Of a stretch of DNA of 64,000 nt, positions 6,670-58,691 are shown piece by piece. The notes under the pieces are model-generated. The model was not told where the DNA came from. It saw nothing but the letters and a program-made list of their open reading frames with translations, and did no database searches. Both the position numbers and the translations under genes were made by a program. The stretch spans positions 11,275 through 75,274 of the forward strand of contig CAKUYE010000001.1 of NCBI GenBank assembly GCA_934702375.1, read 5' to 3'. The DNA comes from an uncultured Bacillota bacterium (lineage in GTDB: Bacteria; Bacillota; Dehalobacteriia; UBA7702). The number at the start of each line of letters is the position of its first letter. Positions within the stretch are counted from its first letter, which is position 1.

Positions 6670-9030
6670 TTATACGACCTTTGCCACAGTTACCGTGATA
6701 TCGTCCTTTACCTTGCCCCCTCCTGCCAATACGGCATGGTTGGCAATGCGTTCTCCAATCGCCTTAGGCGTATCACCGCAACAATCCGCCAATAGAGGGA
6801 TCAACCATTCATCCGGCCCATTTCCGACGGAAACCGCTTCTTCCAAGCCATCGCTGGCCAAAATAAGAATATCACCGGGATTCAAGGGCTCCTTGGAACG
6901 TTTGGCCGGAGCAGAAAAGAAAGTGTTTCCGTCAAAGGCAACACCGCCGATCACTTTTACCCCCTTTCCCGGTGTACACAGGTAGGATGCACCGGCGCCA
7001 AGCTTCACGAACTCCGCTTTTTTTCGAATGCGATCAATCAAACAAAGATCAAGGGTAGCATAAAGTTCCGCCTCTCTTTCCAATAATAATCGGTGTCGAG
7101 CCAAAGCCGCAACAAAATCCTGCTCAAAACCACAATCCAGTATCTTACGAATAAACTCCACTGTATTTTGAGATTCTTTTTTCGCTTTCGCACCGGAACC
7201 CATACCATCGCTGATGATCAAAGCTTCTTTTGCGTCAGGCAACAACAACGCTGCATCGGTATCACCACAAACGGTGCTGCCCTCTTTCGTCAATTGTACG
7301 GAGCTGACTTCCATGGAAATCGCATCGCCGGAGATCAAACGGCAGACACAGGCTTCGCCCCGGCTGCCGCAACAACAATCCGAAACGGTATAATGCAAAC
7401 CGGAAAGATGATTGATTGCTCCGGCGATCTGGCGTCCGCAGGGGCGTTTTCCATCACAATGACGGGTTTTGAGCCGCAACCGGATCTCATTCATATCAAT
7501 GTTATCGAAAAGAATTTTATCAACGCGAAAACCGTTTTTTCGTAATTCACCGCCGAGCTTGGTATAAAGGGTTTCCTTCATCGTTTTCAACCCTTCCATA
7601 TTTTCCGCCAATTCCGTTAAGATTCGGGCGGTATGCTCCATTTGACTTACAGCCAAAGTGCGGCTGGCATCAACTTGCCGCTGCCAATACTCATTTTTCC
7701 GAAAAAGCTCATAAAGACAATTTACGGCAGTCACCATTTCTTTGCTATGACAGCATTTACGCCGAAAGGTTTCGGGAAGATCCTTTGTGGTGATACCGTC
7801 GTTGGCATCGGCTAAGGCAAAAACCCGCATCAGATCTTTATAGGTCACATCAAAATCACTTTTCCAACATAACCCCTTTAACGTACAACCATTACAAATT
7901 TTTGCAGAGATATGCTCTAAAATTCCATTGGCATTTTTTCCGCTTTGAATAGACGATTCCTGATACACACCGTTCATCGCCGTTTTCAGAGCGGAAAGAC
8001 TTTGCCCGGTCTCTTTCAGACGATTCAAAGCATATTCCTCGCTTTTGGAAGAGGTATCGGCCTTTGCCGCCGGAGTTTTCAATCCAAACACTTCAGAGAT
8101 ACGAAAAAGAATGCCATTGGGTATTGCCAGGAAAAGTACTGCCCCGATCAAAGTTTCCAGAGCAGATGATGATAAAAGAGTTGTGTCAAGGAGATATAGA
8201 GATAACAATATCTTTCCCAGCAAATACCCAACAATAATCCCCGGTCGGCGAAAACGGCGGAATAGCCCTGCCGATAAACCGGAGAAAGCATACATTCCGA
8301 TGGCTGCCGGACTGACCAACGCAGAAAGCGATGGCAGAATACCAAGGACCGCCCCGGCGGCGGCACCGCTTCCGGCACCGCCGATAAAGGCAGCAGAAAG
8401 GATCAGGAAACACATCACAACATTTGCAGGAGATACGGAATAGACTGCAAAGCTATCCATGCCCAGTAACAAACCACCGGCAAAAATAAATATGCATAGG
8501 ATATCTCCCCGTCCCGGTTTTTCCATACTGCCTAAAAGATGCCATACCTCAGAAGCTCGATGCAGTACAAGAGAAAATCCGGCAGCTAAGATGCTCTCAG
8601 TCAAGGTGATAACGAGGAGCATATCCGATATGCCTTGAAAAACAAGAAACAGGCCGCGTATGACCAAAACTGCCGTAAAGACAGTGATCACCAAATACGA
8701 TTGACTTTTACTCCCTAAAACAGGATAAAACAAAAAACAAAAGAAGGATGCCACCAAAATCACGGCATAAACGGCAAATTGAGACGGTACAAAATAATAA
8801 TACCCGGCGGCGGCAAAAATCAGCCAGAGAAAACTCCGGCGCCGATCTGCAGCGGAAGCCGAAGCAAACCAGGCAATGCCAAAGGGATAAACAGCACCGA
8901 GAAAACCCGCACCGGCCATAAAAAAGCCGCAGATCCCCAAGAGAAGAGTCGGTAAAGAAAACCAGCATCGTACCATAGATTTTACCGGATGTTCTTTTTT
9001 CATTTTAGGCAAAGCCATTCTTTTTGGCAT
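6670..9030 (-). CDS. spoIIE: stage II sporulation protein E (PP2C phosphatase with polytopic membrane domain)
   Basis: About 10 hydrophobic segments in the N-terminal half; C-terminal PP2C-type domain with DGMGSG and ASDG motifs; about 790-846 aa depending on start (ATG at 9030 chosen; TTG at 9210 possible). Confidence 0.85.
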   Translation of the reverse strand: MPKRMALPKMKKEHPVKSMVRCWFSLPTLLLGICGFFMAGAGFLGAVYPFGIAWFASASAADRRRSFLWLIFAAAGYYYFVPSQFAVYAVILVASFFCFLFYPVLGSKSQSYLVITVFTAVLVIRGLFLVFQGISDMLLVITLTESILAAGFSLVLHRASEVWHLLGSMEKPGRGDILCIFIFAGGLLLGMDSFAVYSVSPANVVMCFLILSAAFIGGAGSGAAAGAVLGILPSLSALVSPAAIGMYAFSGLSAGLFRRFRRPGIIVGYLLGKILLSLYLLDTTLLSSSALETLIGAVLFLAIPNGILFRISEVFGLKTPAAKADTSSKSEEYALNRLKETGQSLSALKTAMNGVYQESSIQSGKNANGILEHISAKICNGCTLKGLCWKSDFDVTYKDLMRVFALADANDGITTKDLPETFRRKCCHSKEMVTAVNCLYELFRKNEYWQRQVDASRTLAVSQMEHTARILTELAENMEGLKTMKETLYTKLGGELRKNGFRVDKILFDNIDMNEIRLRLKTRHCDGKRPCGRQIAGAINHLSGLHYTVSDCCCGSRGEACVCRLISGDAISMEVSSVQLTKEGSTVCGDTDAALLLPDAKEALIISDGMGSGAKAKKESQNTVEFIRKILDCGFEQDFVAALARHRLLLEREAELYATLDLCLIDRIRKKAEFVKLGAGASYLCTPGKGVKVIGGVAFDGNTFFSAPAKRSKEPLNPGDILILASDGLEEAVSVGNGPDEWLIPLLADCCGDTPKAIGERIANHAVLAGGGKVKDDITVTVAKVV

Positions 9031-9316
9031 TGCTTTTTCTTCAAAGGGATAAAACTTTACCGACTCACTCACTGGATCACATCCTTTCCTGGGGCTTTTC
9101 TTTTGTTTTCTATCGCATCTCGCGATTCTGATACAATTATAGCTCTTTGCCGCTGTAAACATTGTCACAATACCGAAGCCAAACAAAGAATTTTCCGACG
9201 GTATCTGCAAGTATCCGGCAAAATACCCATAGCATTTTCGTCACATTTCCATTGACAAACCCATCTTCCCTGTTCAGGGCAGAGTCAAGGAACGACATTA
9301 TTTCAAAATGCGAAAA

Positions 9317-9878: not shown

Positions 9879-10547
9879 ATGCCCATATTGTTACTGATGA
9901 CATTAAAAACCGGCGCTCTGTTCTTACTCACTCTGGGATGTTTTCGTCTGATGGGCTATCGCTCCCTGGGAGATATGGAACCTCTGGATTACGTGATCGT
10001 TTTGGGGATCGGCGAAATCATGGGATCACCATTAAGTGCCCCGGAAGATCCCATTTACGGCGCGGCCATTGCCATTGTTACACTCACTCTTCTCCAAATG
10101 ATCCTTTCCGCCCTTTATTCCAAAATTCCCAAACTGGGTAGAATGATGGAAGGCGGACCGATTCCGGTGATTCGTGACGGCAAGATCATCGAAAAGAACC
10201 TGAGCCGCAATCGCATTGACACCGATTCCATTATGGAGGAGCTGCGCATCAAAGGCTGCCGGGATGAAAGAGATGTAGACGCAGCTTATCTGGAGCCAAG
10301 TGGACGTTTTAGCGTGATTTTAAAAAACGAAGCATCCCCCATTACCCCGCGCTATCTGGGAGAAAACGCATCTTTGCTCCTAGTGGAACATGGGGAAATC
10401 CGCACCGCCGATTGGGAACGATGTGATGCTCCCAAAGAAGAGATCCTTCGCTTTTTAGAAGGCGAAAAAATAGAATCCTGGCAAGAAATCAAGACTCTTC
10501 TTTACAAAAACGGCGCTTTTTACATGGAACGAAAAAAAAATTCGTGA
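9879..10547 (+). CDS. DUF421 (YetF-like) membrane protein
   Basis: 222 aa; N-terminal TM segments then soluble domain, YetF-family pattern; RBS AAAGGAGC upstream. Confidence 0.55.
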   Translation: MPILLLMTLKTGALFLLTLGCFRLMGYRSLGDMEPLDYVIVLGIGEIMGSPLSAPEDPIYGAAIAIVTLTLLQMILSALYSKIPKLGRMMEGGPIPVIRDGKIIEKNLSRNRIDTDSIMEELRIKGCRDERDVDAAYLEPSGRFSVILKNEASPITPRYLGENASLLLVEHGEIRTADWERCDAPKEEILRFLEGEKIESWQEIKTLLYKNGAFYMERKKNS

Positions 10548-10615: not shown

Positions 10616-10691
10616 GGCGGTGTAGCTCAGTGGTTAGAGCACTCGGTTCATACCCGGGGTGTCAAGGGTTCAAATCCATTCACCGCTACCA
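10616..10691 (+). tRNA. tRNA-Met (anticodon CAT), CCA encoded
   Basis: Cloverleaf by eye: acceptor GGCGGTG/CACCGCT, D-arm GCTC-AGTGGTTA-GAGC, anticodon loop TTCATAC, T-loop TTCAAAT, 3' ACCA; one G-A mismatch in T-stem; Met versus initiator versus lysidine-Ile not resolved. Confidence 0.8.
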
Positions 10692-10694
10692 CAT

Positions 10695-10771
10695 GGCGCG
10701 TTGGAGAAGCGGCTGAACTCACCAGCCTTTCACGCTGGCATTCATGGGTTCGAATCCCATACGCGTCACCA
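10695..10771 (+). tRNA. tRNA-Glu (anticodon TTC), CCA encoded
   Basis: Acceptor GGCGCGT/ACGCGTC, anticodon stem CCAGC/GCTGG with loop CTTTCAC, T-loop GGTTCGAATCC, 3' ACCA. Confidence 0.85.
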
Positions 10772-22463: not shown

Positions 22464-22994
22464 TTAAAAAAAGAGCTTCGTCACATAAAAAGCCGTAAAA
22501 AAAGCAACGAAATCTCCGATAAGCCCTACCCAAAGAGCATAGCGAAAGCGTTTGATGGCCACAGCACCAAAATAAACGGTGAGAACATAAAAGGTCGTTT
22601 CAGTGCTGCCCTGCATGATCGAAGCCATACGGCCAATAAAGGAATCCGGACCGTAATGCTGGATCAGCCCGGCAGTAAGCCCCAGTGAGCCGCTGCCGGA
22701 AAGAGGCCGCATCAGCGCCAGAGGAATCACCTCTGAGGGAATCCCCAGTCGAGTACAGAGCGGAGCGCAAGCCTTTTGGAGCAGGGACATCCCGCCGCCA
22801 TTGATGAAAATGGATACCGCCGTCAGCATAGCGATGAGAAACGGCAGAAGATTCCAGGTGAGAAGAAGCCCCTCCTTGGCTCCGTCGATAAACTCATCAT
22901 ACACCGAAACACCTCGATAATAGGCATAAAGAGGAACCGCCAAAAGAATCAGAGGAATGATCCAATCGGAAAGAGAAGCCAAAGCTGCTACCAT
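22464..22994 (-). CDS. spmB: spore maturation protein B
   Basis: 176 aa membrane protein with nucleoside-transporter/FeoB-associated Gate fold; paired with spmA immediately upstream. Confidence 0.7.
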   Translation of the reverse strand: MVAALASLSDWIIPLILLAVPLYAYYRGVSVYDEFIDGAKEGLLLTWNLLPFLIAMLTAVSIFINGGGMSLLQKACAPLCTRLGIPSEVIPLALMRPLSGSGSLGLTAGLIQHYGPDSFIGRMASIMQGSTETTFYVLTVYFGAVAIKRFRYALWVGLIGDFVAFFTAFYVTKLFF

Positions 22995-23590
22995 TTTTTA
23001 CGCCTCCCCTTTGCAAAGAGATGGGAGGCAATGAGAGCCGCTGCCAACCCGGCACAGGAAGCCAGTAACGAGGGAATGATGATCTCCGCCGCATTGGCAC
23101 TGCCGGCTTCGGCACGAATCCCCAGAATCATGCCGGGCATCAAACTCACCGCCGAGGTATTCAACGCCAAAAAGGTAATCATTTCCTTTGTTGCCGTCCC
23201 TTTATTCTTATTGGTAGCCTCCAGCTCTTTCATGGCCTGAATGCCAAAGGGAGTGGCAGCATTGCCCAAACCGAGAAAATTCGCGGAGAAATTCATTACC
23301 ATCGGCGCCCAGGCTTTGTGCTCTCGTGGGAGATCTCGGAAAAGAGGACGCACCAAAGGATAGACCAACCGGGAAAAACGATCCAACAGCCCCGAGCCTT
23401 CTGCCAACCGCATGATGCCGGACCAGAGAGAAAGAAAAGCCGCAAGACCAATGATCATTTCAATGGCATTGGTGGCCCCCTCTAAAACCGAAGGAAATAC
23501 CACTGCCGTTTTACCCGTTACAATCGCAGCCAAAATACCGCCGCAAAGCAAAAACAGCCAAATCGGATTCATCATAGGAAAACACCTCAT
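22988..23590 (-). CDS. spmA: spore maturation protein A
   Basis: 200 aa membrane protein, SpmA family; canonical spmA-spmB order. Confidence 0.7.
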   Translation of the reverse strand: MRCFPMMNPIWLFLLCGGILAAIVTGKTAVVFPSVLEGATNAIEMIIGLAAFLSLWSGIMRLAEGSGLLDRFSRLVYPLVRPLFRDLPREHKAWAPMVMNFSANFLGLGNAATPFGIQAMKELEATNKNKGTATKEMITFLALNTSAVSLMPGMILGIRAEAGSANAAEIIIPSLLASCAGLAAALIASHLFAKGRRKKW

Positions 23591-23708
23591 CCCATCTTAC
23601 GGCAAAATATTTCAGAATATGTCCGAAAAGTTGCACCGATCCAATGAGACAAACATAGGATAAAGTATAGACAGGTACTTGCCGTACCAAAACAAAGGAG
23701 GTGTGCTT

Positions 23709-23849
23709 ATGTTCCCGTTCCTTTTCTGGCCCTTCTGGGGTCCCTGGGGCTGGGGTGGCTGGGGCTGCCGCGGCTGGGGATGGGGCAGCTGCGGCGGTTG
23801 CAACTGCGGCTGTAACTGCTGTAACAACCAATGCGGCTGCTGCCGTTAA
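23709..23849 (+). CDS. small Trp/Gly/Cys-rich peptide (46 aa: MFPFLFWPFWGPWGWGGWGCRGWGWGSCGGCNCGCNCCNNQCGCCR)
   Basis: ATG 7 nt after a strong AAAGGAGGTG RBS; ORF is in a different frame from the 174-aa GTG track ORF; followed by its own rho-independent terminator; candidate sigma-K-like -10 CATAGGATA upstream. Confidence 0.55.
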   Translation: MFPFLFWPFWGPWGWGGWGCRGWGWGSCGGCNCGCNCCNNQCGCCR

Positions 23850-23862
23850 CATAAAATATTCG

Positions 23863-23899
23863 GAGGCAGAGAAATTCTCTGCTTCCGTTTTCTGTTGTA
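23863..23899 (+). terminator. rho-independent terminator after the small Cys-rich peptide gene
   Basis: GGAGGCAGAGA-AAT-TCTCTGCTTCC (11 bp, one G-U) then GTTTTCTGTTGT. Confidence 0.7.
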
Positions 23900-23967: not shown

Positions 23968-24395
23968 TTAAAACACGTAAGGGGGTTCACCGGAAAAATC
24001 GGCAATCAAACCGTGGGCATCTTCCAGATAAAAGACTTCCAAAAGAGGATTGGTCGCTTCTCCATATTGCCCTTTTACAATCGGGTTTTGGATACACATT
24101 TCTTTGGCTGCCATATTATTTTCAAACACAGCCTTACCATGCAGACGGATCCATGCATATTCCGGACTGGAAACAGAGATTTCTATTTCCGGATTTTCCT
24201 GCATATCCCGAAAACCTCTTTCTGATTATTTGTACAAAACCACAATTTCCCCTCAAGTTCACCGGCAAACATAAAAGGACGGCATTTGGCCTTACCGTCA
24301 CGCCCAACAGTCGCTAAATACTGCACAGGATTTGCATTGAGAAATTCTATAACCTTTTTCATGAATGGCACCTCCAAAATACTTTTCAACAACAA
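23968..24395 (-). pseudogene. pyridoxamine 5'-phosphate oxidase-like FMN-binding protein (general stress protein 26 family), split by a -1 frameshift
   Basis: Track ORFs 24183-24395 and 23968-24204 together reconstruct one about 135-aa PNPOx-like protein; the break is at TTTTCGGG where TTTTCCGGG is expected. Confidence 0.6.
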
Positions 24396-24547
24396 GGATT
24401 GATTTTTCCTCTCGTTGATAGTATAATATCACCGTAAGCCCCATTCGTAAAGTAAGCACAATATTGTGCCGTAGTTACCCAAAAGATACCATTGCACCAT
24501 TTCATAGCTTTTATGTCCTTATACTCCAAAATATCGAGGTGATATAT

Positions 24548-24926
24548 ATGAATCAGACAGAGGTTAATAACGATCTCCCGGCTTGTCCCGTAGAAACAAC
24601 GCTGACTTTGATCGGAGACAAATGGAAGGTTCTTGATCCTGCGCGACTTAATACCCGGGAAAAAACGATTTGGAGAACTGAAAAAGTCCATAGGTAAAGT
24701 CTCTCAAAAGGTGCTGACGGCACAACTTCGATCTATGGAGAAAAGCGGCCTTGTCCACCGTAAGGTTTACGCCGAGGTTCCGCCAAGGGTGGAATACTCT
24801 CTCACCGATCTGGGTGAAAGTCTCAAACCCATTCTGGATTCCATGTGGACATGGGGTGAAGAATACAAAAAACAACACGGTTTACCCAACAGGCAAACCG
24901 AGGAAACTTCTCCTCAAAATATATAA
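24548..24926 (+). pseudogene. HxlR-family transcriptional regulator, split by a +1 frameshift
   Basis: MNQTEV...CPVETTLTLIGDKWKV in one frame continues as ILRDLIPGKKRFGELKK... in the next; junction GGTTCTTGATCCTG where GGTTCTGATCCTG would be in frame; divergent from the PNPOx-like gene, a common pairing. Confidence 0.6.
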
Positions 24927-27523: not shown

Positions 27524-27761
27524 CCGGAACACCACCTTTCCTTATTATCATATTTTATCATAAATCAACAAAAAAGAGTTGCGATTTTATGTCTATTTCC
27601 CAAAAATCATTTCTTGCAAAAATAATTTTTGAGATATTTTCCAAGCATTTCTTTTTGTCATTGCCCCTGCTTGAGTTGAAATTTTAACATTTCCTCAGCT
27701 TTTATGCCATCAAAATTACTTCAATACCGATAAGATTTTCTTATTTATGCTGTTGAAAGCA

Positions 27762-27790
27762 TTGACAACAAGAGCTTTTTTCTATATAAT
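27762..27790 (+). promoter_or_regulatory. consensus sigma-A promoter of nhaA (TTGACA-17-TATAAT)
   Basis: Perfect hexamers with 17-nt spacer, about 80 nt upstream of the nhaA ATG; the 5' UTR carries a 12-bp direct repeat TTCTTAACAAAG (27815 and 27839). Confidence 0.6.
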
Positions 27791-27872
27791 ATTCAGCAAA
27801 CATCTTTTGTTAAATTTTCTTAACAAAGCCATCATATTTCTTAACAAAGAAATAAAAGGAGGAAGCTTACAT

Positions 27873-29102
27873 ATGCGTCAACACACAAAGAAAATACTGA
27901 GTATCGTAAAAACATATTCGCTGCCTCTGTTTTTAGGGATCCTCATGGCTCTTATTTGGGCAAATACAGCTCCCGAAAGCTACCGCCATTTTGTTGAACT
28001 GGAGGTATTTCATGGAATTACCATCCACTTCATAGTAAAAGAAATCTTTATGCCTCTTTTCTTTGGCATTGCAATGGCAGAGATCGTTGTCGCGATACGC
28101 CCCGGAGGCGCCATGTATCCCCTGCAAAAAGCAATCAATCCCTTAATGGCTACCGCAGGCGGAGTGATTGGCCCTATCGTAATCTACTTTATACTGGCAG
28201 TACTTTGCAATGGTCTTGCCTATCGCCACGGTTGGGGGATCGTTACCGCAACAGATATCGCCATTGCCTGGCTTGGGGCAAAACTGATTTTTGGAGAAGA
28301 TCATCCCGCCGTTAAATACTTGTTGCTTTTGGCGGTAGCGGACGATGCCATAGGTCTTGTGATCATCGGCGTATTTTATCCTTCCGCTCCGGTAGAACTC
28401 CCTTATTTGACACTTTGTCTATTGGGTATGGTCATTGCCTATCTGCTTCGCCGTTTCCACATTTTAAATCATCTTGCTTACCTTTTGCTGGCAGGAATCC
28501 CATGTTGGTTCGGTCTTCACCTTGCCAATATTGAACCGGCATTGGCTCTCGTTTTTGTTGTACCGTTTATGCCCTCCCACCATCAAAAAAAGGCATGGGA
28601 AAAAGAAAACAAATGCCCCGCAAATGCAGAAATTTTCACATTGGAAAGCTTCTATCAAAACTGGAAACCCGTCGTCGATTACGGACTATTCTTTTTTGGT
28701 CTGGTCAGCGCCGGAGTACATTTTTCTCAAATCAATATCGTAACGATTCTCATTATCCTTTCACTGTTGCTGGGAAAAGCATTGGGAATCACAACTTGCG
28801 GCATTCTTGGCGTCAAATTAGGATTTGCACTTCCCCAGGGGATGACAAAAAAAGATCTTTGCCTGGTAGGGATCGTAGCCGGGGCAGGACTTACCGTTGC
28901 ATTGTTCATCTGCGACGCCGCTTTTGAAAGTTTATTTATCATTAATGCAGCAAAAATGGGTGCACTGTTCAGTTTGGCAGCCATTCCTCTCGGTTACGCT
29001 GCATCTCGAATACTGAGACGGAAAGAAAATAGAAAAATGGCTTCCTTGAAGGAAAAAGAAACAATCCGCAAAATCCCGGCAAAAGAAATATACGAAAACT
29101 AA
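27873..29102 (+). CDS. nhaA: Na+/H+ antiporter NhaA
   Basis: 409 aa; NhaA family TM topology and conserved DD pair (LLLAVADDAIG); GGAGGAAG RBS before the ATG at 27873. Confidence 0.85.
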   Translation: MRQHTKKILSIVKTYSLPLFLGILMALIWANTAPESYRHFVELEVFHGITIHFIVKEIFMPLFFGIAMAEIVVAIRPGGAMYPLQKAINPLMATAGGVIGPIVIYFILAVLCNGLAYRHGWGIVTATDIAIAWLGAKLIFGEDHPAVKYLLLLAVADDAIGLVIIGVFYPSAPVELPYLTLCLLGMVIAYLLRRFHILNHLAYLLLAGIPCWFGLHLANIEPALALVFVVPFMPSHHQKKAWEKENKCPANAEIFTLESFYQNWKPVVDYGLFFFGLVSAGVHFSQINIVTILIILSLLLGKALGITTCGILGVKLGFALPQGMTKKDLCLVGIVAGAGLTVALFICDAAFESLFIINAAKMGALFSLAAIPLGYAASRILRRKENRKMASLKEKETIRKIPAKEIYEN

Positions 29103-46577: not shown

Positions 46578-46863
46578 TAAATAAAAGAGCCCTGCTTCTA
46601 GAAAGCAGGGCATTTTCACAACGTAATTACCATGCTTCTTGCGCGGAAGCTAAGACAATAAAAGCACAAAACTCGAAATATCCTGACTTCACATCAACGC
46701 ACAGCTTCGTCTTCCCACCAATGGCAGTGACTGACAACGTCTGAAGCATGCTCCGTTTCACAGTGGCGCGACCGTTCGGGATTCTAACCCGATTTCTTCG
46801 CAGTTCCGTGATTCATTATTTATTTACTATATTATTTATACCACAATTCCAACAAAATTTCAA
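46578..46863 (-). ncRNA. candidate unclassified small RNA of about 250 nt bounded by an extended -10 promoter and an intrinsic terminator; contains a tRNA 3'-half-like segment
   Basis: Minus strand: -35 TTGAAA (46858-46863), 17-nt spacer, TGgTATAAA -10 (46835-46840); terminator GCCCTGCTTTCTAGAAGCAGGGC then TCTTTTATTT (46578-46611); no ORF; internal GGGTTAGAATCCCGAACGGTCGCGCCA resembles a T-arm plus acceptor plus CCA. Confidence 0.4.
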
Positions 46864-55822: not shown

Positions 55823-56395
55823 TTACCAATATTTATTTTTGATATATCCCAAAATCAGCATTAAAACCATTGTAATAAACGCTGCAAAGATACATGTGCT
55901 GAGCGTGGTATAATTTATAAAGCATGCTATTATAAAAATGAATGTTTCGATGAATAAAAGATAACGTATTTGTTTTTTGAAAAAAAATTGTTCTTTTGTC
56001 GTAAAAGGTTTGTTTTTATCTTCCATTGGTGCTATGATAAAGATAACAGCAAAAGCAAGTATCATTCCGATACAGCAGACCACATCGCTTATCGCGAAAA
56101 AACGGATCGCCAACAGTATTGCTGTGATCAGAATTACAGAAAAAATGTAACATCTCCCGGGTGTTTCAGCATGGTATCCCCCTGCGTATATCCGAAGAGG
56201 AATATATGCCGCCAGATACAGTATCACCTCCATAACGGAATCAAGGAACAACCCGATCAACAGGGCGGTCAACAAATTGAAAAAAAGCACGACTCCCTGA
56301 TACATCCCATAACAATACAGATCCTTCATTTCCGATGTAATAATGCCGGTATCTATGAAACAATCACATAACTTAAGACACACTCTTTGAATCAT
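55823..56395 (-). CDS. agrB: accessory gene regulator protein B (AgrD-processing membrane peptidase)
   Basis: About 190 aa polytopic membrane protein; conserved PLRIYAGGYHAETPGRCYIFS block with the catalytic His and Cys of AgrB; ATGA start/stop overlap with agrD. Confidence 0.8.
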   Translation of the reverse strand: MIQRVCLKLCDCFIDTGIITSEMKDLYCYGMYQGVVLFFNLLTALLIGLFLDSVMEVILYLAAYIPLRIYAGGYHAETPGRCYIFSVILITAILLAIRFFAISDVVCCIGMILAFAVIFIIAPMEDKNKPFTTKEQFFFKKQIRYLLFIETFIFIIACFINYTTLSTCIFAAFITMVLMLILGYIKNKYW

Positions 56396-56544
56396 TTGCA
56401 ATTAATTTTGCTTAGCTTTTCTGCACCGGCAGGCAATTTGGGCTGATGCATAACAAATAAACATGCCGTGCTTGCATTAACGGCGGTTACAAAAAGTGCC
56501 AGACTTGCCATGATGCTACCGATTCGGTACATAAATTTTTTCAT
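56392..56544 (-). CDS. agrD: AgrD-like autoinducing peptide precursor (50 aa: MKKFMYRIGSIMASLALFVTAVNASTACLFVMHQPKLPAGAEKLSKINCK)
   Basis: Amphipathic N-terminal leader; central STACLFVM with Cys 5 residues before the HQP processing motif, the Clostridium perfringens-type AgrD pattern (SACLWFTHQPEEP); AGGAGG RBS upstream. Confidence 0.7.
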   Translation of the reverse strand: MKKFMYRIGSIMASLALFVTAVNASTACLFVMHQPKLPAGAEKLSKINCK

Positions 56545-56587
56545 TGTACAAATGCCTCCTGAACTTAGTTTTTCTGTTGGCATGTTC

Positions 56588-56654
56588 ATTATAAAGCATT
56601 TCTTTTCAGAAATGTCGGGAAATGTTGTGAATTGCAAATTTTTTGTTGAAATTT
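56588..56654 (-). promoter_or_regulatory. candidate autoregulated agr promoter: two LytTR-type direct repeats (TGTTGTGAATT / TGTTGAAATTT, 10-nt gap) upstream of a -10 TATAAT on the minus strand
   Basis: Imperfect 11-bp direct repeats at 56624-56634 and 56644-56654; -10 at 56588-56593 on the minus strand; geometry resembles the AgrA boxes of the staphylococcal P2/P3 promoters. Confidence 0.45.
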
Positions 56655-56675: not shown

Positions 56676-57380
56676 TTGTTTCATATTGCAGTTTGTGATG
56701 ACGAAAAAAATATTTGCGAGGAAATTCGCACTTTTGCTCAACGCTATGCTGAAGAAAAAACCTGTTCTGTAGATTGCAGCATATTCCTTTCCGGGGAGGC
56801 TCTTTATGAATCTCTGGCTAGAGGAAATTATTATGACGTAATCTTTCTGGACATTGAACTTTTTCACATCAGCGGTATTGAAATCGGGGAATATATCCGC
56901 CGGCAATTGAAGGATATGCTTTCCCAGATCGTATACATTTCCTCCCGTCCGGAATATGCCATGGAGCTTTTTGCAACGCATCCCTTGGATTTTTTAACAA
57001 AGCCGATTTCCTTTGAGAAATTTTCAGTCTGTTTAAATCAAACCGCAGAGCTAAAAAGTAAAAGAGGCGCATTTTTTTCTTATAACTGCCGGGGAGAATA
57101 TCGAAGAATCCCGTTATCCAATATCCTCTATTTTGAAAGCCAAAACCGCAAAATCTATGTAACAAGAATCAACGGAAAAGAAGAATATTACGGCAAACTC
57201 AACGATGTGGAAATGCAGGTAGATGATTATGGTTTTTTACGAATCCATAAATCTTTTATTGTAAACCCACAGTATGTAGATATTTACGGGAAAACAACCG
57301 TTACGATGAACAACGGAGATATCCTGCCTGTCAGCCGAGATAAACAAAAAGAAATTGCAGCTAAAATAATAGAAGTATAA
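56676..57380 (+). CDS. agrA: LytTR-family response regulator (AgrA-like)
   Basis: TTG start after AGGAGGT RBS; N-terminal receiver (CDDE, D at about 59) and C-terminal LytTR DNA-binding domain. Confidence 0.8.
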   Translation: MFHIAVCDDEKNICEEIRTFAQRYAEEKTCSVDCSIFLSGEALYESLARGNYYDVIFLDIELFHISGIEIGEYIRRQLKDMLSQIVYISSRPEYAMELFATHPLDFLTKPISFEKFSVCLNQTAELKSKRGAFFSYNCRGEYRRIPLSNILYFESQNRKIYVTRINGKEEYYGKLNDVEMQVDDYGFLRIHKSFIVNPQYVDIYGKTTVTMNNGDILPVSRDKQKEIAAKIIEV

Positions 57381-57395
57381 GTTTGGTGGTTTACG

Positions 57396-58691
57396 ATGGA
57401 CATCCTTTATTCTTGCTCTCTTACGGTGTATTCTTTTTTTAATGTGTATATTCTGCATCGATTTAATCGCTCTTTTTTTGGAACATGCATCACACCACGG
57501 TATATCGAATTAGGGTCTTATTTTTTCATATTCCTTTCAAATACAATCATTTCTTTATGGATCAATATACCGATAGTGATATTGCTATGCAATGTAATAG
57601 GGTATTATTTACTAACCTATAACTATCAATGCGATCAAAAGCATCGAGTTTTCTTACCTTTAATCTACATATGCATTACCACCTTGGCAGAATTGATTAT
57701 ATTCTTCTTGTCTACCTATACCCCAATTCAAATTTCGGAAATAAACTCGTACAATTTCGCTTTTGGACCGGTCTTTTCAGCAATTTTGTCTTATGCAATC
57801 GTAAAAATTCTTATTGCATTAAAATCATCAAGCGCCCAAATCAAGCTGCCGCTTACCCATTGGCTTCTTCTTTTAGTGATTCCTCTGGTTTCGTTTTACC
57901 TCATTCTGCTCATCATGAGCTTTGAAGATGCAGATCCGAAAACAGTGGCACTCTGCTGCATATTGGCATTGATAATCAATTTTGTGGCCTTCTATTTTTA
58001 CGAAGTGGTTACAGCTTATGCCATAAGCAAAATGGAAAAGCAGCGGGAGGAAGAAAAAAACCGTTACTATCTGCGCCAGCTGGAAACGATGGAGGCATTT
58101 TCCGAATCTATGCGCAGCTTCCGGCACGACTTAAAAAACCACACCATTGCCATGCAGGCATATCTAAAAAACAAACAGTACGACGCCCTGGAAACCTATC
58201 TGTCCGATACCTTTATTGAAAAGGCCTTGTCCGAAGAAAGCATCCATTGCGGCAACACCGTGATTGACAGTATTTTAAATTTCAAAATACACGAAGCGGG
58301 AAATAAGGGGATTACCCTTGAAGCAAAGGTTTCCATCCCGCCCCAACTGCACATTTCCGATTCTGATCTGACGGTGATTTTGGGAAATCTCCTCGACAAT
58401 GCCATAGAAGCAGTGGAACCTTTAACCGAAGAACGTGTAATCCAACTGACGATTTCCTATCAAAAAGGAAACTTGATTCTTTCGGTGAAAAATCCCTATA
58501 AAGGAGAATTGCTGAAAAAAGGAGACCGATGGATTACCTCCAAAAAAGATAAGGATTTACACGGCTACGGCTTGGGCAATGTGAAACATATTGTCGATAA
58601 AAACGGCGGCACCATGCGGATTCAAACGGAACAGCAAATCTTCTCCGTGACGATGATGCTATACGACACGAATACAGACGAAAGCCACTAA
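57396..58691 (+). CDS. agrC: AgrC-like sensor histidine kinase (HPK10 family)
   Basis: Six N-terminal TM helices; H-box FRHDLKNH; N-box LGNLLDNAIEA; G-box GYGLGNV. Confidence 0.8.
   Translation: MDILYSCSLTVYSFFNVYILHRFNRSFFGTCITPRYIELGSYFFIFLSNTIISLWINIPIVILLCNVIGYYLLTYNYQCDQKHRVFLPLIYICITTLAELIIFFLSTYTPIQISEINSYNFAFGPVFSAILSYAIVKILIALKSSSAQIKLPLTHWLLLLVIPLVSFYLILLIMSFEDADPKTVALCCILALIINFVAFYFYEVVTAYAISKMEKQREEEKNRYYLRQLETMEAFSESMRSFRHDLKNHTIAMQAYLKNKQYDALETYLSDTFIEKALSEESIHCGNTVIDSILNFKIHEAGNKGITLEAKVSIPPQLHISDSDLTVILGNLLDNAIEAVEPLTEERVIQLTISYQKGNLILSVKNPYKGELLKKGDRWITSKKDKDLHGYGLGNVKHIVDKNGGTMRIQTEQQIFSVTMMLYDTNTDESH

Follow-up and report, generated by a model that had tools for sequence, protein, structure and literature searches.

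Can a short open reading frame (ORF) of extreme composition, passed over by automated annotation and lying beside a pair of spore maturation genes, be a real gene, and what would its product do? The frame sits in a stretch of 64,000 nucleotides (nt) from an uncultured Bacillota bacterium (contig CAKUYE010000001.1, positions 11,275 to 75,274). That whole stretch is called the window here, and all coordinates are counted from its first letter. An earlier note, made by reading the letters, had picked out the frame and proposed a spore coat or crust peptide, a metal-binding peptide, or the precursor of a ribosomally synthesised and post-translationally modified peptide (RiPP). The 46-codon frame is a genuine, uncalled protein-coding gene with its own transcription unit, divergent from spmAB. 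Its product is predicted, with a probability of about 0.5, to be a late mother-cell micro-protein of the spore coat or exosporium, with an aromatic and proline-rich docking head and a cysteine-rich cross-linking tail. Three features are needed for the first part of this answer:

23709 to 23849, plus strand: coding sequence of the 46-amino-acid (aa) peptide, 141 nt including the stop codon, with the ATG at 23709 and the TAA at 23847-23849; orthologues of 33-62 aa have the same position and frame.
23694 to 23703, plus strand: ribosome-binding site (RBS), AAAGGAGGTG, whose GGAGG core ends 7 nt 5' of the ATG.
23709 to 23741, plus strand: aromatic and proline-rich head, MFPFLFWPFWG, codons 1-11; variants of this motif occur in 13 of 13 sequences.

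The coding sequence is flanked by the start of an spmA-like gene (minus strand, ATG at 23575) and by a convergent pseudogene of PNPOx type. It translates to MFPFLFWPFWGPWGWGGWGCRGWGWGSCGGCNCGCNCCNNQCGCCR (46 aa), which contains 7 Trp, 12 Gly, 10 Cys and 4 Phe. The extreme composition described in the earlier note stands, while its exact counts of 9 Trp, 13 Gly and 9 Cys do not. The 46 codons and the strong RBS 7 nt before the ATG were confirmed in the sequence, as was their omission from the mechanical ORF list. That list shows only two low-complexity ORFs across the peptide gene, one of 174 aa on the plus strand and one of 164 aa on the minus strand, both in other frames. These two were rejected because they have no RBS, no conservation and a contrary codon-position pattern.

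Orthologous neighbourhoods were fetched through the adjacent SpmA protein, from species-representative genomes and from SpmA homologues in public assemblies. At 12 other distinct loci (L001, L002, L003, L004, L005/L044, L007, L019, L038, L040, L041, L045 and L048), a small ORF likewise lies just upstream of spmA and points away from it. The SpmA proteins of these loci are 63-82% identical to that of the window. In all 13 sequences, a variant of M-F-(F)-P-F-F-x-W-P-F-W-G forms the N-terminus and a Cys-rich tail follows; the full lengths are 33-62 aa. Every orthologous locus has a GGAGG or (G)GAGGTG-like RBS at the same distance from the ATG. The relatives are metagenome-assembled genomes from anaerobic digesters, rumen and chicken gut, labelled Clostridia, Clostridiales, "Peptococcaceae bacterium" or Candidatus Cryptoclostridium. 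Contigs of the window's own species come from human-gut samples, including Hadza samples, and the gene is present in about 10 independent human-gut assemblies of that species.

The head carries the mark of selection. Among five orthologues with the canonical form M-F-P-F-F-F-W-P-F-W-G, the variable sites in the first 11 codons fall 1/1/8 at codon positions 1/2/3, and pairwise codon differences number 40 synonymous against 8 non-synonymous. All length changes among the orthologues are in frame. Strains of the window's species differ by C28W in one case, and in another by an in-frame 12-nt duplication (which adds CGCN) together with one synonymous change and R46H. The third-position wobble in the head, the RBS kept at all loci and the in-frame strain variation show that the head is under purifying selection in the peptide frame.

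That the locus is instead a GC-rich simple repeat, open in several frames by chance and not a gene, is extremely unlikely. Such a view would fit the imperfect 6-, 12- and 15-nt repeats, the absence of stop codons from at least three frames, and the fact that gene callers never report the ORF. It does not fit the wobble, which is confined to the peptide frame, nor the ATG, RBS, stop codon and promoter-like motif, which are kept in the 12 other species loci at the SpmA divergence given above, nor the head, which is the most conserved part and is not repetitive. The conservation of the ORF, the RBS and the promoter-like motif across orthologous loci excludes chance. A simple repeat without coding constraint, which the earlier note had allowed for, is thus contradicted by the codon-position pattern and the conserved frame, and the unannotated coding gene that it had suspected is real.

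When would such a gene be expressed? The control region that it shares with spmAB contains the following features:

23635 to 23636, plus strand: AC, candidate -35 element of a sigma-K-type promoter, 17 nt 5' of CATAGGATA.
23654 to 23662, plus strand: CATAGGATA, candidate -10 element (CATAnnnTA) of sigma-K type; CATAnnnT(A/G) is found in every orthologous locus.
22988 to 23575, minus strand: spmA-like gene with a Pfam Gate domain, whose homologues are named spore maturation protein A.
22464 to 22994, minus strand: spmB-like gene with a Pfam Gate domain, arranged with the spmA-like gene as spmA/spmB.
23594 to 23620, minus strand: candidate sigma-E-type promoter of spmAB (ATA, 16 nt, CGTAAGAT), back to back with the peptide promoter.

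In C. difficile, sigma-K and sigma-E promoters are told apart by the -35 element, which reads AC for the former and ATA for the latter (PMC3789822). SigK-dependent exosporium promoters of B. thuringiensis share the sigma-K form, for example CAC-N16-CATATGTTA for bclA, and are experimentally supported (PMC4750369). Window positions 23635-23662 have the promoter form of the sigma-K regulon that these papers describe: AC, 16-17 nt, CATAnnnTA (PMC3789822, PMC4750369). The sigma-K-like -10 element with an AC 17 nt upstream, reported in the earlier note, is indeed present. AC-N16/17-CATAnnnT(A/G) lies at the aligned position in 11 of the 12 species loci, with a spacer diverged beyond recognition; at the remaining locus, L005/L044, GC replaces the AC. 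This form and its conservation suggest that the peptide gene is transcribed by sigma-K. A sigma-70 scan found no promoter.

Another match to AC-N17-CATAnnnTA occurs at 27531-27557 on the plus strand, about 190 nt upstream of a Na+/H+ antiporter gene (27747-29102). Given the background rate, it is probably due to chance.

The neighbours named in the earlier note are also as described: the two minus-strand Gate-domain proteins are arranged like spmA and spmB, and the synteny of the peptide gene with spmAB holds in the 12 species loci. The two transcription units have a common divergent control region of about 130 nt. Upstream of spmA, a block GGACATATT...CGTAnnAT (ATA-N16-CGTAnnAT) is conserved in L001-L004, L038 and L048. 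But for one mismatch in the -10 element, the block looks like a sigma-E promoter, and an assignment to sigma-E seems plausible. The spmA-spmB operon is sigma-E-dependent in C. difficile (PMC3789822). A full-length SpoIIE, with SpoIIE_N and PP2C domains, is encoded at 6670-9210 of the window (minus strand), and in one relative (L050) spoVAC and spoVAD lie two genes from spmA. By this gene content, the window organism is an endospore-former.

Taken with these observations, the peptide is best read as a spore coat or exosporium cross-linker. The late mother-cell sigma-K RNA polymerase would transcribe the gene, and since the product has no signal sequence, it would stay in the mother-cell cytoplasm, the site of spore coat assembly. 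As read from the sequence, the peptide has no charged n-region, long hydrophobic core or cleavage site. The head, canonically MFPFFFWPFWG, would then dock on a hydrophobic surface, either the outer forespore membrane or a partner in the coat or exosporium. The cationic tail is 22-36% Cys. It would form multivalent cross-links by way of disulfides, and possibly metal thiolates, and on meeting oxidising conditions would harden and insolubilise the outer spore layers. Spore localisation, docking and cross-linking are all suggested by the conserved sigma-K-type promoter, the lack of a secretion signal, an extreme composition that drifts, and the precedent of CdeC and CdeM. An endospore-forming genome (SpoIIE, and spoVAC/spoVAD in the relative) and the absence of a secretion signal are both what a coat protein calls for. 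Among the ideas in the earlier note, the spore coat or crust peptide appears to be the best supported, owing to the conserved sigma-K-like promoter.

CdeC and CdeM of C. difficile are Cys-rich, sigma-K-controlled, lineage-restricted exosporium proteins for which disulfide cross-linking has been proposed (PMC9542656). The peptide is like them in its Cys richness, its candidate late mother-cell sigma-K control, its narrow lineage and the proposed disulfide cross-linking of the outermost layer. It is unlike them in size (4-6 kDa against 19-45 kDa), in its aromatic and proline-rich head, which they lack, and in a Cys content far above theirs, and there is no sequence similarity. The spore location of CdeC and CdeM was shown by experiment, while that of the peptide is predicted.

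The outer spore layers made by CotY/CotZ and ExsY are disulfide-linked and self-assembling. These proteins, from the B. subtilis crust and the exosporium of the B. cereus group respectively, are Cys-rich and SigK-dependent (PMC4750369). Unlike the peptide, they are folded, about 150-160 aa long and conserved in their Cys positions, and no homology was detected between them and the peptide. A further comparison is to CotC, CotU and CotG of B. subtilis, which are short, low-complexity, sigma-K-dependent proteins of extreme composition that are cross-linked into the outer coat. The peptide shares their shortness, their extreme low-complexity composition and, as a candidate, their sigma-K-type control. 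They are rich in Tyr/Lys/Asp or Lys/Ser/Arg, form dityrosine or phosphorylation-dependent cross-links instead of using thiols, and are not homologous to it. If the predicted function holds, the peptide most resembles, by function, CdeC/CdeM, CotY/CotZ/ExsY and these small coat proteins of extreme composition. It would represent, at micro-protein size (35-60 aa, with Cys at a quarter to a third of the residues and a conserved aromatic tag), a lineage-specific theme of Cys-rich spore-surface proteins.

Several findings weigh against the cross-linker. The gene is absent from the spmA-adjacent position in three related lineages (L006, L042/L043 and L050), so it is dispensable and not essential for sporulation. 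In L050 (GCA_017421955.1), whose SpmA is 80% identical, the gene and its promoter are cleanly deleted between spmA and an S24-like gene, which leaves an intergenic region of about 100 nt; in L006 and L042/L043, rluB lies upstream of spmA in place of the peptide gene. The motif AC-N16/17-CATAnnnTA is not enriched in the window, with 5 found against 5.6 expected, so the promoter call is carried entirely by conservation among related, non-independent sequences. The -10 elements of sigma-E and sigma-K are almost identical. Because the organisms are strict anaerobes with a reducing cytoplasm, disulfides would form only after release. Finally, a head of 11 residues is not long enough to cross a membrane, and its docking partner is hypothetical.

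What kind of material is the tail? The parts of the peptide that follow the head are:

23742 to 23789, plus strand: Trp/Gly-rich middle, PWGWGGWGCRGWGWGS, with imperfect 6- and 15-nt repeats of CTGGGG type (found with Tandem Repeats Finder).
23766 to 23846, plus strand: Cys-rich tail, residues 20-46, with 10 Cys in CxC and CC motifs; its composition is kept and its Cys spacing is not.

The head is the sole part of the peptide conserved in sequence. The gene's middle rests on imperfect 6-, 12- and 15-nt repeats, which probably drive its rapid change. Its Trp richness is specific to the window species; the relatives mostly have C-G-C-G repeats, with a short GWGW in L040. The C-terminal CxC repeats pointed out in the earlier note are present, accompanied by CC motifs. 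Cys makes up 22-36% of each of the 13 peptides (8-18 Cys per peptide). Pooled, their 575 residues are 29% Cys, 18% Gly, 13% Phe, 9% Arg, 7% Pro, 6.5% Trp and 5% Asn. There is not one Ala or Lys among them, acidic residues are nearly nil, and the net charge is +2 to +6. Each of the 13 sequences has its own string of Cys spacings, and the number of Cys and the length of the tail vary as well. Cys and Trp also replace each other, a switch that takes one third-position change (TGC or TGT against TGG). It is seen between strains, as C28W, and between L002 and L003. AlphaFold2 run on the single sequence gave no usable model, with a predicted local distance difference test score (pLDDT) of 56 and a predicted template modelling score (pTM) of 0.26.

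These results bear on a second reading, a metallothionein-like metal buffer or store of the sporulating cell or the spore. Thiolate clusters in its tail would take up Zn(II), Cu(I), Cd(II) or Fe, and such a role would be compatible with a location in the coat. The abundant CxC and CC motifs, the Cys content and the prediction of no fold for a small peptide without its ligand would all fit. A fixed cluster geometry would, however, resist the loss of Cys spacing and number and the change of Cys to Trp between strains and species. Aromatic residues account for a quarter of the peptide, a level that is unusual in classical metallothioneins. No metallothionein model in Pfam or NCBIfam and no PDB chain matched at E <= 10, and no metal transporter or sensor is found among the conserved neighbours. 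The bacterial metallothioneins SmtA/BmtA and MymT are likewise small and dense in CxC and CC; they have fixed Cys/His ligands, few or no aromatic residues and metal induction, and the peptide has unconserved spacing, interchangeable Cys and Trp and no match to any model. Conservation of the Cys spacing, which the earlier note had put forward as a check, was not found, and this argues against a metallothionein-like or knottin-like fixed scaffold. The metal-binding reading is weakened accordingly and looks unlikely.

Given the unconserved spacing, Cys number and tail length, the exchange of Cys and Trp and the lack of a confident predicted fold, the tail seems to behave as bulk material or as an unstructured multivalent tail would, unlike a precise metal cluster or a knotted scaffold. 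This is the behaviour proposed for it in the coat or exosporium cross-linker. Mammalian keratin-associated proteins are small, 20-40% Cys or rich in Gly and aromatic residues, repeat-driven and fast-evolving, and they harden structures through dense disulfides. The likeness of the peptide to their ultra-high-sulfur and high-Gly/Tyr classes is a functional analogy only, as these are eukaryotic proteins unrelated by descent.

A larger idea can be built on that analogy, and it is rather speculative. The peptide could be the founding member of a class of thiol-cement micro-proteins of the spore, in which a universal aromatic and proline-rich tag of 11 residues carries a hypervariable, repeat-driven tail to the spore surface and into a keratin-like matrix of disulfides or metal thiolates, and diversification tunes the chemistry of the surface. 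The tail would be poly-Cys, and in the window species also poly-Trp. If this were true, exchanges between Cys and Trp and slippage at the repeats would adjust how the spores of gut anaerobes scavenge oxidants, load metal and adhere.

The head raises a different possibility, a membrane-active peptide. Stretches rich in Trp, Phe and Pro, such as FPWWWPF in indolicidin and tritrpticin, partition into membrane interfaces. The cationic head could insert in the same manner, and the peptide would then promote mother-cell lysis or act as a SpoVM-like regulator or anchor. The aromatic content of MFPFFFWPFWG is extreme, the peptide has a net charge of +2 to +6 with nearly no acidic residues, and a candidate late mother-cell promoter would suit the timing of mother-cell lysis. 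SpoVM and CmpA of B. subtilis offer a precedent, as mother-cell peptides of less than 40 aa that act at the forespore surface and long went unannotated (PMC10730256). The head is nevertheless below the length needed to span a bilayer and is not amphipathic, and a tail of 22-36% Cys is left without explanation. No cognate antitoxin or antisense element was found, and a module downstream of the gene in relatives is on the same strand. SpoVM differs from the peptide in being an amphipathic helix under sigma-E control that lacks a Cys-rich tail, and no similarity between the two was detected. The analogy with indolicidin and tritrpticin covers the head only: these are 13-residue secreted host-defence peptides without a Cys tail, and they are unrelated to the peptide. 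This reading appears distinctly unlikely. A type I toxin was also considered and rejected, as no antisense promoter or RNA family was found and the hydrophobic head is only 11 residues long.

A conserved N-terminus followed by a hypervariable Cys-rich C-terminus is also the leader and core pattern of a RiPP precursor, although the pattern is not specific to RiPPs. The head would be the leader or recognition sequence, the tail the core, and the enzymes would be encoded elsewhere in the genome. Clostridia are rich in thioether peptides made by radical-SAM enzymes, which counts for such a reading. Against it, the orthologous loci that carry the gene have no modifying enzyme (radical-SAM, lanthionine synthetase or cyclodehydratase), protease or exporter within 1.5-4 kb. 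The conserved neighbours are spmAB and a gene of helix-turn-helix (HTH) and S24-like type. Within the window, the neighbours are the Gate-domain proteins, RluB, the PNPOx-like protein and HxlR, none of them radical-SAM. An all-aromatic leader of 11 residues would be atypical, the cores are about 20 to 50 residues long with no fixed Cys pattern, and no match was found to SCIFF or any other precursor model in NCBIfam. Precursors of the SCIFF (six cysteines in forty-five residues) ranthipeptides are similarly clostridial, Cys-rich and about 45 aa long; their Cys pattern is conserved and a radical-SAM maturase is encoded next to them, and neither feature was found for the peptide. The RiPP-like precursor suggested in the earlier note is thus poorly supported and very unlikely. 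A bolder form of the thiol-cement idea would make the tag the leader for an unlinked maturase, giving a new sporulation-specific class of RiPP.

The HTH/S24-like gene is a feature of the relatives. In L001-L005, L019, L038-L041, L044, L048 and L050, a conserved convergent gene downstream of the peptide position encodes a protein of about 155-233 aa (about 210-230 when complete), which begins with an HTH region and ends in a peptidase S24 (LexA-like) domain. In L050, it is seen to lie between the peptide/spmAB locus and spoVAC/spoVAD. The protein may have a regulatory role linked to sporulation. At the corresponding position, the window has no such gene.

Where does the transcription unit end, and could its end be the point of the frame? 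Two features follow the stop codon:

23861 to 23897, plus strand: intrinsic terminator, a 12-pair hairpin at 23861-23887 (one G-U pair) followed by TTTTCTGTTG, called by folding against shuffled sequences.
23850 to 23858, plus strand: CATAAAATA, directly after the stop codon, a remnant of a second module that is conserved in relatives.

The hairpin starts 11 nt past the stop codon and folds at -22.4 kcal/mol (z = -5.7), which none of 200 shuffles equalled. The private terminator of the earlier note, a hairpin with a U-run, therefore exists, with a stem of 12 pairs instead of the 11 bp given there. Strains L029 and L030 have another hairpin and T-run in its place.

An ORF full of rare amino acids with a terminator directly after it could be a regulatory leader peptide, or attenuator, in which ribosome stalling senses the supply of Trp, Cys or Phe and the hairpin is the regulated terminator. 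For this, there should be something to regulate, but no same-strand gene lies downstream in the window or in relatives, where the next genes are convergent. The terminator of the relatives stands 100-150 nt off, past another module. No alternative anti-terminator pairing is seen, and the head is conserved at the amino-acid level, beyond its codon content. The probability of this reading is close to nil.

The module in relatives lies on the same strand, about 20-130 nt past the peptide stop codon, in L001, L002, L003, L005/L044, L019, L038, L045 and L048. It opens with CATAnnnTA, similar to a sigma-K -10 element, and goes on with a short covarying hairpin (CCGG-loop-CCGG), then GAGGA, then another hairpin; in L001 and L002 an AC stands 16-17 nt upstream of the CATAnnnTA. 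The terminator there is past the module, at the end of the convergent HTH/S24-like gene. The module may be a small RNA driven by sigma-K or a 3' untranslated region element. It has no Rfam match, and no further copy of it was found elsewhere in the 64-kb window. A second small ORF after its GAGGA was considered and rejected, as there is no start codon at a usable distance. Rfam also gave zero matches within or near the peptide locus.

Sequences of strains of the window species differ beyond the 9-mer CATAAAATA, which places a rearrangement breakpoint directly after it. On the far side, the neighbour in these strains is either the PNPOx/HxlR/purA side or, in L029 and L030, a large Metallophos-domain gene (about 1,015-1,021 aa), and each arrangement has a terminator hairpin of its own. 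In the window, the PNPOx-like gene at 23968-24395 (minus strand) is split by a frameshift into ORFs of 78 and 70 aa (the public call of the second is 59 aa). An HxlR-type regulator gene at 24464-24926 (plus strand), divergent from it, is split by a frameshift into two frames as well. Other strains have intact proteins of 131 aa (PNPOx) and 125 aa (HxlR). The PNPOx frameshift recurs in several independent assemblies, so it probably reflects true decay of the gene instead of a fault in assembly.

How could such a gene have been overlooked? Gene calls on the fetched contigs that carry it leave an uncalled gap of about 350-550 nt at the peptide position. An exact look-up of 9 versions of the peptide in about 15 billion predicted proteins found none of them, and an exact look-up among called genes found none either. 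A full HMMER search of 1.84 billion representative proteins returned no homologue, and word-indexed protein searches with the peptide and with an 8-sequence alignment returned no matches. Profile models from Pfam-A and NCBIfam, which include the YjcZ-type tiny sporulation proteins and the metallothionein families, and the chain sequences of the PDB gave no match at E <= 10. In the literature, a text search did not find the head motif strings, and a keyword search found no Trp/Cys-rich spore peptide. The family that the earlier note did not recognise went unmatched in all of these sequence searches. With every profile and sequence test negative, the peptide is, by sequence, a new family outside every named comparison family.

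A degenerate DNA pattern for the head found none in viral contigs. It did match 4 JGI metagenome contigs (L020-L023), which were rejected as false positives: they are homopolymer-ridden, of low complexity and without the peptide gene. These contigs are open in all frames, with translations rich in Gly, Pro, Phe and Lys, and look like sequencing or assembly artefacts.

The peptide family is a concrete case of functional micro-proteins that metagenome annotation systematically misses. The outer spore layers of gut Clostridia are barely characterised outside C. difficile, and their lineage-specific components set persistence, transmission and resistance. Should the peptide be a coat cross-linker, a chain of 35-60 residues with 22-36% Cys could act as spore cement, and the 11-residue head would be a candidate targeting tag for spore-surface display. 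Its loss in standard spore proteomics would also be explained, since it is not in the search databases, yields few or no usable tryptic peptides and would be heavily cross-linked. The drift from Cys to Trp would be a natural experiment on which property of the tail is selected.

Elsewhere in the window, an AgrD-like precursor of an autoinducing peptide (…MKKFMYRIGSIMASLALFVTAVNASTACLFVMHQPKLPAGAEKL…) is encoded at 56392-56637 (minus strand), immediately upstream of an agrB homologue at 55823-56401 (minus strand). A LytTR response regulator (56676-57380) and a GHKL histidine kinase (57396-58691) are divergent from agrD/agrB, which makes a complete quorum-sensing locus of agr type. The window also holds a gene for a YetF-type DUF421 protein at 9879-10547, two tRNA genes at 10616-10768 and a cobalamin riboswitch at 46658-46825 (minus strand, 59.6 bits).

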